Of a stretch of DNA of 64,000 nucleotides, positions 15,001 to 21,000 are shown one piece after another. Positions within the stretch are counted from its first letter, which is position 1. Every line of letters starts with the position of its first letter. The position numbers are program-made. The stretch comes from Myxococcales bacterium (GTDB taxonomy: Bacteria; Myxococcota_A; Polyangia; Polyangiales; DASUME01), in NCBI GenBank assembly GCA_047601445.1, contig JASGJH010000001.1, positions 7,360,001 through 7,424,000 of the forward strand. Reading direction: 5' to 3'.

Positions 15001-18000
15001 CTGCTCGCGGCTATCGAAGGGGCCATGCTGCTCACCGCCTCCGAGCCCAGCACTTCGCCGTTGGGAGGACGATCGGGAACCTATCCGGTGCGACTCTCGT
15101 TCGGCCCGATCTCGCTTCAGCTCATCCGGCAGTCCGTGGCCGTCCAGGGCGAGCCCATCGATCTGCGGCCAACCCAGTTTCGCATTCTCGCGCAGCTGCT
15201 CTCGAACCCGGGTAAAGCGCTGACGGTCGCCGAGTTGGTGGACACGGCACTGCGAGGGTTTCACGGCGACGGCAGTGCGAACATTCGGTTTCAGATCCAC
15301 GGATTGAGACGCAAGCTCGGCGCCGCAGGGCGTCTGATCGAGACTGCCTCGGGCGGATACGGAGTCGGCCTCGAGCGCGTGCGGAATTCGCCAGAAGACG
15401 AACCGCCTCTGACGAACGCGAACGACGAGCTCTACGAGGCCGACGGTACGGATTAGCAAACGCTAACGGTGCGAGTGCGCAAGAGAGCCACTTGTGGCGC
15501 CGTGCATTAGCAAACGCTAACGCGCTCGTAGTGCGATCGATGGACAGCGCGGTGCCGATGGCACGAATTAGCAAAAGCTAACGCGCGGACTCCGATCTCT
15601 CGTGATAATCCCGTGCAAGCTTTCTTACGGTGGAAGAGGAGTAGCGCGTGGCGCTCTCCTATCTTCGAGCTCGTAGTCGATGGTGACGAGGGGGGAGGTC
15701 CGGGGGGACGCCATGCAGCGTCGGGGCCGCGTATTTAAGGTTCAGGCCCGCGACGTGCGCTGTGGCGTCTAACACTCGTAGTCGACGATGGCGACGGCTC
15801 GAGAGAGCTCGCGCATCACGCCTAGAACTACCCGGTGGGCCGGGTGCTTTTCGTATGCCTCGAGTGCGCTGCGATCATCGAAGCACACCGTCGCAACGAT
15901 GTCGTACGAGAACGACGTAGCAGCGAAGTCTGCTCCGATCTCGAGAGCGCGAATGCTCTCGATGTCCTTCCGCAAGGATCCGATCGCTGCCACGGCACGC
16001 TCGAGATTCTCGGGAGATCTGGCGTGAAGTTTGAACATGACCACGTGCTTGATCATCTCTGCCTCTCTTGGCGGGGAGCGCGACGACTTAGTGAGCGCGA
16101 TGTTGTGTGGAGAATCTAGTTAGCACACTCGCGCGCGACGGATGCTTTACGGGTTTGCGTCTTTCGGGACAGGAGAGCGCTCCGTGGCCAACGGCTCCTG
16201 TCTACGTTCGACATGGGGGAGGAACGAGAATGAAGAGCGTGGGCGTGTACTGTGGATCGGCCGAAGGAACTCGGCCGCGATATCTCGAAATCTCGAAGCA
16301 GGTCGGCCGAGCGCTCGCGACGCGTGACCTCGAGCTCGTGTACGGAGGCGCGAAGATCGGACTCATGGGGGCCATGGCGGACGCCGCGCTGGAGGCGGGG
16401 GGACGCGTTTTCGGGGTGCTCCCTGCTGCCTTGAGCAAGGTCGAGATCGCACATCCCGGGCTCACGGAATTTCGCGTCGCAGGCTCGATGCACGAGCGAA
16501 AAGCGATGATGGCCATGCGATCGGACGCTTTCGTCGCGTTGCCCGGCGGGTACGGCACGCTGGACGAGATCTTCGAAGCGCTCACCTGGGCCCAGGTCGG
16601 CATTCATCAGAAGCCGTGCGCGTTGCTCAATGTCGATGGGTTCTTCGACTCGCTGATCGAGTACCTCGATCACGCGACCAGCGAAGGCTTCATTCGGCCG
16701 ATGCATCGACCCATGCTGCTCGTCGAGACCGACTTCGAGCGTTTGCTCGACCGACTGCAGCTTCATTTTCCAGCTTCGAATGCGCCGATCATGTCCGCGC
16801 ATTCTGTCGAGGCATGAAGGCCAGGGAATTCAGCGCTCAAGCGCAGCGTGCGGTGCTTTTCGATGGGGGCTTTCGAGGGGGGATATCACGCCATGAAGAT
16901 TCACATGATTCTTGGTCCTACAGGGGTGGGGAAAACGAACCGGTCCATCTCTTTGGCGCGGCAGAAGAGCGTGCCAGTCATCTCTCTGGATCGATTCCAG
17001 ATCTTCGATGAGCTCGCGACGGGAACCGGGCGACCGACTCCCGAGGAACTCGCAGGAACCGAGCGCATTTTCCTCGCCAGGCGTCGTGTCGCTGAGGGCG
17101 AGTTTCCCGCCGATGAGGCCTATCAGGCTCTCCTCGGATGGGTCGACGCGCTCTCGCATCATCACGAACTCATCCTCGAAGGTGGTTCCATCTTGCTGTG
17201 CTCGACTCTGTTCGAGCAGGGATTCCTGAGCGCGCACCAAGTCGAAATTCAGAATCTGACGATCCGCGATGTCGACTTCCACCGAAACACCGTCAAGAGC
17301 CGCATCCGTGAAATGCTGGTCTCCACCGATGGTCGCCCCTCGATGGTCGAAGAGCTGGCCAGGGTGTGGAACGAGCCAGCGCAGCTCTCCTTCCTGGAGA
17401 CTATCACCGGCTACGACATCATCATCGAGCATTGCCGGCGGCTTCGCATGACGCCGGGCGATGTCGCGGCGCAGCCGGTGGCCGCCGACCTAGTGGATGC
17501 GATCGCCGAGTCACACGTCGACTACTCGCTGCGACAGATCGCGGCCTTCGCGCGACTCTTGAGCGACCATACGTCACGCTGGAAAGTCCAGTACATCTCC
17601 GAATACACCAGGCCCAATGCGAGCGTGGCGCACGAGTCCTCACGCGGGACGGCATCCGTGGAGGAGAGCTCCAAAACGCCCAGTGACAGCCAGTTCGACC
17701 TCTCGTCGCCGGCCAGGCTCGATGACCCCTATTCGCTGTACGCTCGCCTGCGGCGAGAAGCCCCGGTGTTCCACGACGCCGCGCTCGATGCCTGGATCAT
17801 CAGCCGCTATGACGACGTGTGCTCGATCCTGAAGGACCCGGTGCGGTTTTCTTCGATAGGTGTCCTGAAGGTCAAGGCCGAGCCGCCGCCGGAGGTCGCC
17901 GCGGTGCTCGCGCAGGGAATCCCGTACGTGCGTACCCTCATCGACAACGACCCCCCGGGCCACACGCGCTTTCGCAACCTGGTCAACCGAGCTTTCGTTC

Positions 18001-21000
18001 CTCAGCGGGTCAACCAGCTCGAACCAAAGATTTACGCGAGCGCCAACGCCCTGATCGACGAGATCGTCGACAGCGGGGAGTGCGATCTCATGGAGCGCTT
18101 TGCGTTCCCGCTGCCCATCTTCGTCATCGCGGAGATCTTGGGCTTGCCGCGCACGGACGTCGGTGATCTCAAACGCTGGTGTGACGACTGGATGGCACTC
18201 CAGTCTGGAACGGCCCCCGTCGAACACCTCGTGCAATGTGCTCACAGCTATCTCGCGATGCAGCAGTACTTCCTCCAGAAGGTCGCGGAGCGTACGCATG
18301 AGCCGCAGGACGATATGTTGAGCGCGCTCATCCAGGCGCGCGTCGACGACGACGCACCCTTGGCTACGGGCGAGCTGGTTCGCTTGCTGATGAGTCTCTT
18401 GGTCGCGGGCCACGAGACCACCACGCATTCCATCGGCAACGTGCTGACGCTCCTGCTGAGGAACCCGACTCAACTCGCTCTGCTTCGCTCGAACCCGAGC
18501 CTCACGGCGCAAGCGGTCGAGGAAGGATTGCGGATGGACGCCCCCGTCCAGAGCCTGTTCCGCCGGGTCACAGAGGACACCACGGTCGGCGGGACCAGCC
18601 TGCCCAAGGGGGCACGGGTCATGATCCTGTACGGATCGGCCAACCGCGACGAGGCTCAGTTCAAGGATCCCGACCGTTTCGATGTTGCGCGCGGCTCAGG
18701 CGGAAAGCATCTCGCGTTCAGCCGCGGCATTCACTTCTGCCTTGGTGCCACGTTGGCCCGCATGGAGATCCGCATTGCGCTCGATCTCTTGATCCAGCGC
18801 TTGCCCGAGCTGCAGTTGGATGAGAGCCTGCCCCTGGAGCGAGTGCCCCACTTCTTTTTGCGCGGCTACAAGCGCCTGCCACTCAAGTGGAATCCGAACC
18901 CGCAGTCCGCAGGCTACCCGAGTGGAGTGTTCGGTAAGTTCGTGAATACGAGCGAGAGTGCTCTCGCTGACTCGTCCACGCTCGAGCCGAAGAAGACGGC
19001 ATCGCATGACTAGTCGGGCGCGTGGGCTGAATCGACTTAGCGATATCTCGCGTCGACGGAGCTCGGCAGGCTCTTCAACCAGCCGATGGCCTCGTCTTCT
19101 CTCGCGAAGAGCTTGGTAGGCGTCTCTCGCGTGCCGTACACGGCGAGGAAGAAGTTGCCGAGGATGTTGCCGACGAGCGAGCCTCCCAGCAGCGCCAGCG
19201 CCTGGAAGTCTTTGAGCCCTCCGAAGTACGCCCGCGCCTCGTGATCGATCTCCTTACACTTGCGGATATCGACCAAGATGGCCAGACGTTCACCCTTGGC
19301 GAGCTTCAGCTGCGCCTCGACGTTCTCTTTGGCTCCGGCCAGCGTGCACACGGATCCCTGATTGAATTCGAAGCGCAGGATACCGAGGTCTCTGTCGATC
19401 CAAGTGGACCCGGTGCTCGTCTGCACCTTTTCTATCTCCGGACGGAGCTTTCCCCCCTGCGCCCTCATTCGATCACTCCTTTGCTACCTCCGCGGCCGAG
19501 TCCATGACGCGATGCGTCTGCTGGCCGCATGCCCGAGAAGGCAGCATGTGAGCAATGATGCCTGCCCCCCGATTGCCCCAGCAAGCGGATACTGAGGGGG
19601 AGGGGTGAAAAGCAGGTTAGTGAAAATACACAGGTTATTGGCCAGCCGTGGGTGCGTCATGGGATAGCCCAAACTTGGCAACGATTGACTACGTCCCGGG
19701 CAAGCCGGGCTCCCCCAAGTGACGCAGGCGTGACAGGTCCGCGTGGAAATAGACGCGCTGGATCTTGCCACCGTCGACCTCGAGCAGCAGCGCCGCGAAG
19801 GGCTGGCCGGCCTGCTTGAACACCACCCCTGGCTGCCCGTTGAGCTCGTGATCCTCGATCTGAAGTGAGGCGGCGGTCTTGGCGGTCGTGTGCGCCACGA
19901 AGGCGGCGATGCGCTCGGCTCCCTCCAGTGGGCGCGGCAAGTTGCGCACGCCGTTGGTGGTGCGTCCCTGCTCGCCGCCGTCGGTGATCATCACGGCGTT
20001 GTCGGCCAGCATTTCCACGAGCGCGCGCGTGTCGCCCAGGGTCGCCGCGTCCATGAAGGAGCGCAACAGGCGCAGGTGCTCGGCACGGTCGGTGGGGAGC
20101 GAACGCTTGGTGCTCGCCACCTGCGTGCGGGCGCGCTCGAGGAGCTTGCGGCAGGCGGCCGTGCTCTTGTGGATGAGGTCCGCGATCTCGCTGTGCTCGA
20201 AGTCGAAGACGTCGTGCAAGAGCAGCACGGCTCGCTCGGCTGGGCTCAGGCGCTGCAACATCACCAGGAATGCCATCGAGATCTGCTCGAGGTGTTCGAG
20301 TTCGGAGAGGCTGCTGCGTGCGACATCGACCGGCTCGGGCAGGCGGTCCGAGCGGCTGTGCTCGCGCTGAACCTTGGCGGACTGCAGTTCATTGAGGCAA
20401 AGGCGCGTGACCATGGTGACCAGGTAGGCCTTGGGAGACTCCACCCCCTCGCTGTGCCGCTCCCAACGCAGCCACGCCTCCTGGACGAGGTCTTCGGCGC
20501 GGCCGAGGTCGCCGAGCATGCGATAGGCGAGGGCGATGAGTTCAGGGCGGGCTGCTGCGAACGCAGTGAGGGCCGTAGGGGCCGACGTCATGCCCATGAG
20601 ACCGGCCAGCACCGGCGAGCGTGACAGGGGCCGACGAAAAAAAGTGGTCACGCAGGTCGGGGTTGTCCGGTCTTAAGCGCAGGCGGACCCAAGCGCCTGG
20701 AGCTCAATGATGTTCAAAGCCTCGAGATTGTGCGGCTTGTCGCTCGTGATCACGCTGGTCACTGGCGCCTGCTACCGATTGCCACCTGCCTCACCCTATC
20801 AGGACCAGCTGCCCCAACGATTGTCTGACACGGGGCTGTACGCGCCTGGCCGGGTGAGCGTCGCTTCGGGCGTGCGCCCCTACGAGCCGAACTACGCGCT
20901 GTGGAGCGACGGCTCCGCCAAGCGACGCTGGATCAAGTTGCCCGATGGCTCGCGCATCGACGTGCGCGACATGGACGACTGGCAGTTTCCGGTGGGTACG

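Follow-up and report, generated by a model that had tools for sequence, protein, structure and literature searches.

Gene content of the locus

The analyzed window, a 64-kb stretch of DNA from a Myxococcales bacterium, contains three intact open reading frames between positions 15769 and 19013, with every catalytic motif present. Two of these, on the plus strand, had been reported in a first-pass annotation and were found complete where it placed them: a gene for a LOG-type cytokinin riboside 5'-monophosphate phosphoribohydrolase (16230-16817, 195 aa) and a gene in which a predicted isopentenyltransferase (IPT) is fused to a cytochrome P450 (16893-19013). The third lies on the minus strand (15769-16056) and encodes a 95-aa protein of the Dabb (stress-responsive alpha/beta barrel) family. 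It is divergent from the LOG gene, and the 173 bp between the two (16057-16229) presumably constitute the promoter region. A scan of this region with the sigma-70 consensus, which is uninformative for a myxobacterium, yielded no match. The sequence GGGGGAGG is found upstream of the LOG ATG, this gene being preceded by a good ribosome-binding site.

The fusion gene can be read from three starts. The first-pass annotation took position 16863 (716 aa) and considered that the true start may lie further inside the gene, at position 16905 (702 aa), as in a database call. An internal start is indeed favored, but the most likely one is the ATG at 16893 (706 aa), which is common to five of the six homologs and has a ribosome-binding site, GAGGGGGG being located 10 nt upstream. 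Residues are numbered below according to the 716-aa form.

The identity of the LOG gene, as proposed in the first-pass annotation, is borne out by matches to PF03641 (E 1.3e-42) and TIGR00730 (189.9 bits vs a cut-off of 96.35), by the alignment to the solved LOG 5zbj (E 1.4e-56) and by the sequence PGGYGTLDE, which represents the PGGxGTxxE motif. Its closest solved relatives are named LOGs (5zbj and 5its). The score with the NCBIfam equivalog NF058542 (CtkRMPhLog), a narrow model, was 138 bits vs a cut-off of 300. The same genome carries two further LOG-family genes, the nearest being 56% identical, and the LOG of the module is thus a dedicated extra copy. The Dabb protein matches PF07876 over the full model (positions 1-96 of 96, E 2.2e-17, 63.9 bits vs a cut-off of 25); its solved relatives are proteins of unknown function.

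Domain composition of the fusion protein

The N-terminal part of the fusion (residues 11-232; 16893-17558) was predicted to be a complete adenylate isopentenyltransferase of the Tzs/Tmr type, and this prediction, which had been made in the first-pass annotation, was confirmed at the sequence level. The domain matches PF01745 (E 3.6e-57, 193.9 bits vs a cut-off of 20, model positions 1-225 of 233) and aligns to residues 1-225 of Agrobacterium Tzs (2ze5, E 9e-38), with 37% identity across the whole domain. The P-loop GxTxxGK[ST] (G18-T25) and the Asp-Arg pair D43/R44 (D33/R34 in Tzs) are invariant, both in an alignment of the seven fusion proteins and in a nine-sequence alignment that includes Tzs and FasD, and the AlphaFold model of the domain has a pLDDT of 80-92. 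A tRNA-IPT (MiaA) was rejected, as TIGR00174 scored only 38 bits vs a cut-off of 148.65 and matched the N-terminal third alone; a distinct MiaA-like locus is present elsewhere in the genome, at 1.365 Mb. The residues that correspond to the HMBPP-related pair of Tzs give an ambiguous signal for donor use. The column of Asp173 holds a Thr in the window IPT and C/I/A/V/T in its relatives, whereas that of His214 holds an invariant Tyr, with an invariant His three residues upstream by which a polar pocket may persist. Given the replacement of the Asp/His pair by Thr/Tyr, we did not file the fusion as a Tzs-like direct zeatin synthase.

The linker that follows (residues 233 to ~276; 17559-17690) is variable and of low complexity. 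It could not be aligned and varies in length across the seven fusions, and with a pLDDT below 35 it is predicted to be disordered. The C-terminal tail, with the stop codon (residues 681-716; 18903-19013), is unconserved and lacks a counterpart in the homologs (pLDDT ~25). Over the whole fusion the AlphaFold model reached a pTM of 0.47, the arrangement of the domains relative to each other being without confidence.

The region between linker and tail (residues ~277-680; 17691-18902) was described earlier as a complete P450, and our data agree: its alignments and motifs show a complete, soluble bacterial class-I P450 of the CYP107-like kind. Solved P450s of this kind (8w6z, 6gmf, EryF and PikC) align end to end with residues 260/277-675 (E 1e-71 to 1e-74); residues 4-391 of the 397 of 6gmf, for instance, pair with residues 277-675, and the others do so similarly. 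The heme-thiolate motif FxxGxHxCxG (F619-G628, with ligand Cys626 at 18738-18740), the ExxR motif (E554/R557) and the I-helix acid-alcohol pair (AGHETTT, residues 515-521) are invariant in all seven fusions. No ferredoxin or reductase was present among the 54 ORFs scanned in the window (16 + 38), in line with the earlier observation that a redox partner is lacking nearby.

In the P450 tree, the fusion domain falls into a clade of 13 rows (SH-aLRT 99), which holds all seven fusion P450 domains and five close stand-alone P450s. The 63-67% identity reported before for the closest stand-alone proteins, including those of Acuticoccus sediminis and of an Ensifer adhaerens plasmid, was reproduced, beyond which identity falls to 48%. 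For one clade member (P0011, on contig L006) a radical-SAM gene and no IPT was found within 3 kb upstream, whereas the downstream side leaves the contig. To our knowledge, FasA of Rhodococcus is the only bacterial cytokinin hydroxylase that has been implicated genetically. The fusion P450 is only 32% identical to FasA, which is lower than to unrelated macrolide P450s. It was therefore probably recruited independently, and the regiochemistry of FasA is not transferable to a protein that is not its ortholog. The earlier statement that the side chain is hydroxylated 'as FasA/CYP735A do' thus holds as an analogy and not as orthology.

Distribution and conservation of the module

Our search reproduced the six other database clusters with IPT and P450 in one protein that had been reported (48-62% identical, 652-678 aa). 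The genomic context was seen for two of these six. On one metagenome contig (L002), Dabb, LOG and fusion are kept as an operon, with the Dabb gene directly before the LOG gene and identities to the window proteins of 66%, 73% and 58%, respectively. The window Dabb has only four other database clusters near it (63-67%), one of which has members on contigs of the same four sizes (52039, 9877, 13343 and 278776) as the fusion cluster P0004. Considering the adjacency in the first lineage and the common contigs in the second, the Dabb protein is, by its gene context, a conserved third member or accessory of the module, which the earlier analysis had missed.

According to the first-pass annotation, the module occurs in no other Myxococcota genome sampled. 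None of the 400 other genomes of the phylum that were sampled had an IPT-domain match better than 1e-8, and neither fusion nor module was found in the 151 Polyangiaceae genomes searched. Two of the latter do contain a stand-alone IPT of the same subfamily (43-47% identity), the nearest named relative of the window IPT, one of them matching Chondromyces apiculatus EYF03344.1. Hence, among these genomes, the fusion is unique to this myxobacterium, but the IPT is not.

The P450 of Ensifer adhaerens NER9 plasmid pD (63% identity) belongs to the same clade and is divergent from an adjoining idi gene and a gene for a 240-aa IPT. This IPT is only 32% identical to that of the window, and the IPT tree places it in the opposite half, within a different subfamily; the P450 thus goes with IPT genes as such and not with any single IPT lineage. 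The presence of idi points to DMAPP as the donor. A tblastn search of the plasmid, which stems from a rhizosphere isolate and also bears a type III secretion system, recovered neither Dabb nor LOG. The IPT-idi-P450 cluster itself was without description in the literature searched and is known from annotation alone.

Isoprenoid supply of the host and acquisition of the genes

The host genome consists of one contig (9.50 Mb, 98.7% complete). It gave no match to IspG (PF04551), IspH (PF02401) or DXR (PF02670), models that matched in 9-10 of 14 reference genomes used as control, and it encodes two HMG-CoA reductases. The organism thus lacks the MEP pathway and cannot make HMBPP, the donor by which Tzs makes zeatin directly (PMC8234997). 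Zeatin can then arise only via hydroxylation of a DMAPP-derived side chain, which would explain the P450. Neither a CHASE receptor nor a CKX domain was found in the genome.

Horizontal acquisition had been proposed on account of a lower G+C (62%). The value is real (62.2%), but it corresponds to the 3.5th percentile of the genome windows, GC3 is ordinary and no island marks (tRNA, integrase or flanking repeat) were found around the module. The compositional signal is thus weak, and it is mainly the patchy distribution that suggests a horizontal origin.

Proposed function and alternatives

Taken together, we consider it fairly likely that the region 15769-19013 is a Dabb, LOG and IPT-P450 module for making, de novo, an isoprenoid cytokinin with a hydroxylated side chain. 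The compact route of IPT, P450 and LOG put forward in the first-pass annotation is supported by the lack of the MEP pathway and HMBPP and by the occurrence of the P450 clade beside idi and an IPT in Ensifer. In the first step, the Tzs-type domain would move the dimethylallyl group of DMAPP, the sole C5 allylic donor that this mevalonate-pathway host can make, onto N6 of AMP, giving iPRMP. The fused P450 would then act on the nucleotide, hydroxylating a terminal side-chain methyl to give zeatin riboside monophosphate, with electrons from a host ferredoxin/reductase encoded elsewhere, and LOG would finally strip off ribose 5-phosphate to release the free base. Since LOG enzymes act on 5'-monophosphates (PMC8234997), AMP would be a fitting acceptor. 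The fusion would hold the hydroxylase beside the source of its substrate, and Dabb would be a conserved accessory. The host is thus a probable producer of a plant hormone of the zeatin kind, by a route so far undescribed in bacteria, and the hormone may have a plant-directed role.

An N6-prenylated adenine could also be made and then be oxidized by the P450 in a way other than zeatin-type terminal hydroxylation (at another position, by epoxidation, by further oxidation up to an aldehyde or an acid, or with the purine or the ribose as its target), giving a new modified purine in which Dabb possibly has a tailoring role. The P450 leaves some room for this, being related to FasA at the family level only and having macrolide/secondary-metabolite hydroxylases as its nearest solved relatives. 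The same holds for the Dabb protein, which is conserved, stands outside the canonical three-step pathway and has a fold prone to enzymatic functions, as in olivetolic acid cyclase; moreover, the lack of a CHASE receptor and CKX domain removes a tie to classical cytokinin biology. Against this, IPT, monooxygenase and LOG together make up precisely the canonical set, and the Ensifer relative occurs in a plant-interaction setting, on a plasmid without Dabb or LOG, where the P450-IPT pair would work without Dabb. We therefore regard such a different oxidation as rather unlikely.

It is quite improbable that the genes were acquired and now lie silent or in decay, with no present function: the module is rare, its G+C is slightly lower and redox partner genes are absent nearby, but the three ORFs are intact with all catalytic motifs, and both LOG and the fusion, at ATG 16893, have a ribosome-binding site. 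Least credible is a fusion born of chance gene order, in which no substrate passes between the domains, the IPT taking a hydroxylated donor or a different acceptor and the P450 acting on an unrelated host metabolite; a polar pocket from His218 and Tyr221 and the lack of a predicted interface between the domains (AlphaFold) would allow for it, but HMBPP is beyond the capacity of the host, seven clusters retain the fusion, at 48-62% identity and with purifying constraint on both domains, and in Ensifer an independent IPT accompanies a P450 of this same clade.

Returning to the synthesis of a hydroxylated cytokinin, a tentative extension is that the P450 clade, which in at least seven lineages is fused to IPT and in Ensifer lies beside idi and IPT, could constitute a dedicated soluble iP-nucleotide hydroxylase that evolved apart from CYP735A and FasA. 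The fusion might then be a near self-contained zeatin-nucleotide synthase for a mevalonate-only host, and Dabb a third component of cytokinin synthesis, unrecognized before.

Of all steps in the pathway, the hydroxylation that converts iP-type cytokinins into those of the zeatin type is understood least; in PMC8234997, plant CYP735A is described as never purified and FasA as lacking biochemical characterization. If our interpretation is correct, a soluble bacterial P450 joined to its IPT would offer a tractable enzyme for this hydroxylation and could serve as a compact part where zeatin production is to be engineered. The makers of plant hormones would come to include a soil myxobacterium of predatory or saprophytic habit, and a mevalonate-only host, barred from the HMBPP shortcut, would gain zeatin via the fusion. 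The connection between MEP loss and the need for a P450 would provide a simple rule for predicting the cytokinin route of a bacterium.

Comparison with known cytokinin systems

The R. fascians fas operon (pFiD188) comprises fasA (P450), fasB/C, fasD (IPT), fasE (CKX) and fasF (LOG), and like the module it brings a bacterial IPT together with a LOG and with a class-I P450 that has been implicated in the hydroxylation of iP to tZ, all within one operon (PMC8234997). The fas genes are separate, whereas IPT and P450 are fused in the window, and only LOG is close (FasF 50%, vs 32% for FasA and ~27% for FasD, which belongs to a different IPT subclade). Unlike fas, the scanned window ORFs include no FasB/C-like ferredoxin/PDH genes, CKX or methyltransferases, and the fas operon in turn has no Dabb gene. 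In the absence of FasA and FasD orthologs, of FasB/C in the window and of CKX in the genome, we rejected a fas-type operon.

With Agrobacterium Tzs/Tmr (2ze5) the window IPT shares the fold, the P-loop and the Asp-Arg pair. In Tzs, Asp173 and His214 serve in the direct formation of zeatin from HMBPP (PMC8234997); the window IPT differs in having Thr/Tyr at these positions, an HMBPP-less host and its own hydroxylase.

The Ensifer NER9 pD cluster resembles the module in its same-clade P450 and adjoining IPT, and differs in its unfused, divergent genes, its other IPT subfamily, the presence of idi and the lack of LOG and Dabb. Plant CYP735A enzymes are membrane-bound eukaryotic class-II P450s, from which the soluble, bacterial, CYP107-like P450 of the window is set apart by description. 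The reaction proposed for both, hydroxylation of iP nucleotides, is the same (PMC8234997).

The names IPT-P450, IPT-CYP and P450-IPT were not in use in the literature searched. Our search of representatives also recovered fused IPT-LOG forms of 444-543 aa, and according to PMC8234997 such fusions are found in Claviceps purpurea and R. fascians A21d2. As in the window, cytokinin enzymes are joined there in one polypeptide, the partner of the IPT being a LOG in those proteins and a hydroxylase in the fusion described here.

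A probable module for zeatin-type cytokinin synthesis

The module formed by a Dabb-family gene, a LOG gene and a gene in which an adenylate isopentenyltransferase (IPT) is fused to a cytochrome P450, is real, intact and rare. It probably makes a hydroxylated, zeatin-type cytokinin, whereby the IPT would join AMP and DMAPP, the P450 would act second by hydroxylating the IPT product, and LOG would act last. The first-pass annotation had read IPT, P450 and LOG in the same way, and this remains the most likely reading, strengthened by a host that lacks the MEP pathway and by a P450 clade that is linked to IPTs.

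The LOG gene (16230-16817, + strand; 195 aa, with GGGGGAGG just 5' of the ORF) matches PF03641 (1.3e-42) and TIGR00730 (189.9 bits, cut-off 96), aligns over its full length to solved LOG enzymes (5zbj, E 1.4e-56) and keeps the sequence PGGYGTLDE. The host genome has three LOG-family genes; this one is 73% identical to the LOG of metagenome contig L002, which also carries a fusion (P0005), versus 56% to its nearest paralogue. The fusion gene lies in a single open frame (16848-19013, + strand), and reading both ORFs bore out their annotated positions. Translation from the ATG at 16863 yields the 716-aa protein of the first-pass annotation, of which residues 11-232 match the Pfam IPT model (positions 1-225 of 233, 3.6e-57) and also align to residues 1-225 of Agrobacterium Tzs (9e-38). 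The Pfam match to P450 covers the second half only. The solved bacterial P450s 8w6z, 6gmf, EryF and PikC align to residues 260/277-675 (1e-71 to 1e-74), and the P450 domain is therefore complete. The P-loop, D43/R44, the I-helix AGHETTT, ExxR and the heme-thiolate motif (C626) are invariant across the seven known fusions when aligned, so that the proposed combination of a Tzs-like IPT domain and a complete P450 in one protein is confirmed. The linker (residue 233 to ~276) varies among the fusions in length and sequence and is predicted to be disordered. An AlphaFold2 model based on a seven-row alignment (mean pLDDT 67, pTM 0.47) was good for the IPT domain and poor at residues 241-339 and in several P450 loops.

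It had been suggested that translation starts 14 codons further in, as in a 702-aa database twin. A later start was indeed favoured, but at a different codon: five of the six fusion homologues start at the equivalent of M11, GAGGGGGG is found 10 nt upstream of the ATG at 16893, and the twin begins one Met beyond M11. The protein is thus taken as 706 aa, with 16893 as its putative start. Scanning with the sigma-70 consensus, which is uninformative for a myxobacterium, returned no promoter-like site. The terminator scan was equally uninformative, as its three terminator-like sites equal the shuffled expectation; none lies between LOG and the fusion gene. A look-up of public sequencing runs, RNA runs included, listed none for the module.

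The Dabb gene (15769-16056, - strand; 95 aa, PF07876 2.2e-17) is located immediately 5' of LOG on the opposite strand. On L002 the order is Dabb-LOG-fusion, all on one strand, with the Dabb stop overlapping the LOG start, and the three products are 66% (Dabb), 73% (LOG) and 58% (fusion) identical to their counterparts in the window. The further Dabb relatives comprise four other clusters at 63-67% and one at 40%, and the subfamily is thus no more common than the fusion. The members of one Dabb cluster are found on contigs of 52039, 9877, 13343 and 278776 bases, lengths exactly matched by four members of fusion cluster P0004, which we read as the same contigs. On that basis Dabb would accompany the fusion in all three lineages with a judgeable context. 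The solved Dabb relatives are proteins of unknown function.

Two other elements were observed near the Dabb gene. A 23-nt stretch (15670-15692, - strand) shares 83% identity with the Dabb 3' end and falls within a short ORF situated 105 bp downstream of that gene. It would encode LVTIDYE, compared to VAIVDYE in Dabb, and may be left over from a rearrangement in which Dabb was inverted with respect to the L002 order, or be due to chance. The interval from the stop of an OmpR-type response regulator gene (14653-15456) to the Dabb 3' end contains three copies of a 20-nt repeat (15452-15586, spacing 54 and 61 bp) with the palindromic core TTAGC-N4-GCTAA. This core is found three times in the 9.5-Mb genome, always within the array (~2.6 expected genome-wide by composition), and is absent from L002, from the Ensifer (L001) and partial P450 (L006) loci and from two Polyangiaceae IPT loci (L177, L178). 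The array looks like a putative operator array for a DNA-binding protein.

Distribution and ancestry

A word-indexed search of 5.8 billion proteins recovered six IPT + P450 clusters besides that of the window, all metagenomic (48-62% identity, 652-678 aa), and five stand-alone P450s at 63-67%, including those of Acuticoccus sediminis and Ensifer adhaerens plasmid pD, the next relatives being only 48% identical. The number of fusion clusters and the identity ranges reproduce those given earlier. An exhaustive HMMER search with the IPT domain alone against 1.84 billion cluster representatives gave 104 clusters at E <= 1e-10; among the 150 best IPT matches, an extension of P450 size was seen in just two long proteins, P0006 and P0009. 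Five more proteins of 444-543 aa were listed among the best matches, one of them named a TIGR00730 (LOG) family protein, and therefore LOG-IPT fusions exist too. In P0146 (543 aa, metagenomic) a LOG-named (TIGR00730) N-terminal part precedes the IPT domain (residues 285-461), the reverse of the order in the fungal IPT-LOG fusion. A scan of genome contigs with the fusion protein as single query returned no relatives; alignment-based scans of genome contigs and metagenomes, dominated by the generic P450 pattern AGHETTTH, yielded at least two relevant loci among the matches listed, L002 and L006.

The host is indeed a myxobacterium, its RecA sharing 77-86% identity with proteins named Myxococcaceae, Myxococcota, Sandaracinaceae and Sandaracinus. 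The claim that no other Myxococcota genome sampled carries the module was upheld in 400 other genomes of the phylum, where the best IPT-domain match (1e-8) spans only the P-loop third and the matches are MiaA-like genes, and likewise no IPT domain was found at 1e-12 in 400 genomes of the class. Yet the IPT itself has relatives in the phylum: among 151 genomes of the family of Polyangium fumosum, two encode full-length stand-alone IPTs (47% and 43% identical), and the IPT of Chondromyces apiculatus (EYF03344.1, 47%) is the second-best stand-alone representative. The two solitary adenylate-type IPTs of the family (L177 9266-10075 and L178 9492-10208, both - strand) have no P450, LOG or Dabb among their neighbours. 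Their surroundings are syntenic, with a hydroxyethylthiazole kinase and a 642-aa protein that has no Pfam match nearby, and one of them is identical or nearly so to EYF03344.1. In a quick IQ-TREE phylogeny of 98 rows, whose representative matches were limited to those of 200 aa or more ranked no lower than P0214, an 18-row subclade (SH-aLRT 87) unites the IPT domains of the seven fusions with the Polyangiaceae IPTs; Tzs and the Ensifer IPT fall in the other half, and FasD groups with the IPT-LOG fusions. An origin within the Myxococcota is quite plausible for the IPT half.

The low G+C content, from which horizontal acquisition had been proposed, is real but modest: the module has 62.2%, against a genome mean of 66.3% (sd 2.2% in windows of that size), corresponding to the 3.5th percentile, and a wider dip (14300-19700) to the 2.7th. 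The GC3 of the module genes (0.73-0.79) is ordinary for the host genome. A mobile-element island was rejected, as the window showed no tRNA or flanking direct repeat and the ORFs scanned included neither an integrase nor a transposase. The main argument for transfer is therefore the patchy distribution. Also inside the low-G+C stretch is a gene for a DUF7793 / SpoIIAA-like (STAS) protein (19037-19468, - strand), convergent with the fusion gene.

The window further holds five ECF-type sigma-70 family genes (330-1289, 19689-20651, 27205-27882, 32259-32849 and 37566-39497), the first two with a C-terminal SnoaL-like domain; one of the five follows the module at a distance of 0.7 kb, on the opposite strand. 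Two AcrB-family frames (58786-62319 and 61923-63998, - strand) overlap by ~400 nt, the second running off the window, and may represent neighbouring genes for two RND pumps or a problem with the reading frame.

Isoprenoid supply of the host

Tzs-type enzymes make zeatin directly with HMBPP, an intermediate of the MEP pathway, and His214 and Asp173 of Tzs are described as linked to HMBPP use (PMC8234997). The host genome (one contig, 9,502,601 bases, 98.7% completeness) gave no matches for IspG, IspH and DXR, in searches that were positive in 9-10 of 14 control genomes, and it has two genes for the key enzyme HMG-CoA reductase (G000:C1:2513103-2514209 and 6193611-6194711). This myxobacterium is therefore mevalonate-only, with DMAPP but no HMBPP. 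On pathway knowledge, an adenylate IPT would then give only iP-type nucleotides and a zeatin-type product would need a separate hydroxylase, the P450; seen in this way, the fusion would be logically required and not just a curiosity. The evidence from single residues is weaker: the Asp173 column holds Thr in the window IPT (Cys, Ile, Ala, Val or Thr in relatives) and the His214 column an invariant Tyr, but an invariant His lies three residues earlier in the same helix. The pocket thus differs from that of Tzs without being clearly apolar.

The P450 clade and its IPT partners

A P450 tree was built from 56 rows: those of P0010-P0060 with lengths below 480 aa, the fusion proteins and L006, with FasA serving as the outgroup. 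In it the P450 domains of all seven fusions group with five closely related stand-alone P450s and the partial L006 in a single clade (SH-aLRT 99), and the stand-alone forms are nested among the fusions. The Ensifer member of this clade tells the most. On the 130-kb plasmid pD of Ensifer adhaerens NER9, a rhizosphere isolate, the P450 (63% identical to that of the window) is divergent from an adjoining idi and a 240-aa IPT, which is 32% identical to the window IPT and belongs to a separate part of the IPT tree; LOG and Dabb are absent from this plasmid. That pD also encodes a complete type III secretion system and a number of LysM proteins suggests a plant-interaction plasmid. Its IPT-idi-P450 cluster is flanked by an IS66 element and a second repC. 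One P450 lineage thus goes with two IPT lineages, once fused and once adjacent, and once with a DMAPP-supplying enzyme, which is the best available evidence that the P450 substrate would be the IPT product. Counting against this link, the 3 kb upstream of L006 (identical to P0011 in the tree), the side covered, contain a radical-SAM gene but no IPT. The main rival reading, a different oxidised N6-prenyladenine as product, is rather unlikely.

The sequence W[CS]DDWM was dropped as a clade-specific motif: 12 of 120 listed proteins contain it, among them a Sorangium P450 with 42% identity, and the Acuticoccus protein lacks the exact pattern. The host genome has 11 P450-family matches. The reported lack of a redox partner beside the fusion was confirmed: no ferredoxin or reductase is present among the 54 window ORFs scanned, and the partners must therefore be encoded elsewhere.

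Comparison with known cytokinin systems

Neither a CHASE domain nor a CKX cytokinin-binding domain was found in the host genome. There is no sign that the producer itself perceives or degrades cytokinins in the classical way, which would fit an exported signal but proves nothing. No description of the IPT-P450 fusion or of myxobacterial cytokinin genes was found in the literature searched, where solitary myxobacterial cytokinin-type IPTs are apparently undiscussed as well. What is new is the fusion itself, the link of its P450 clade to IPTs, the accompanying Dabb gene and the connection with a host lacking the MEP pathway. The P450 had been compared to FasA of Rhodococcus fascians. With the fas operon read from pFiD188, a hydroxylase role is still favoured, but by analogy and not by orthology: the identity to FasA is only 32%, below that to many solved macrolide hydroxylases, and the P450 of the fusion was therefore recruited independently.
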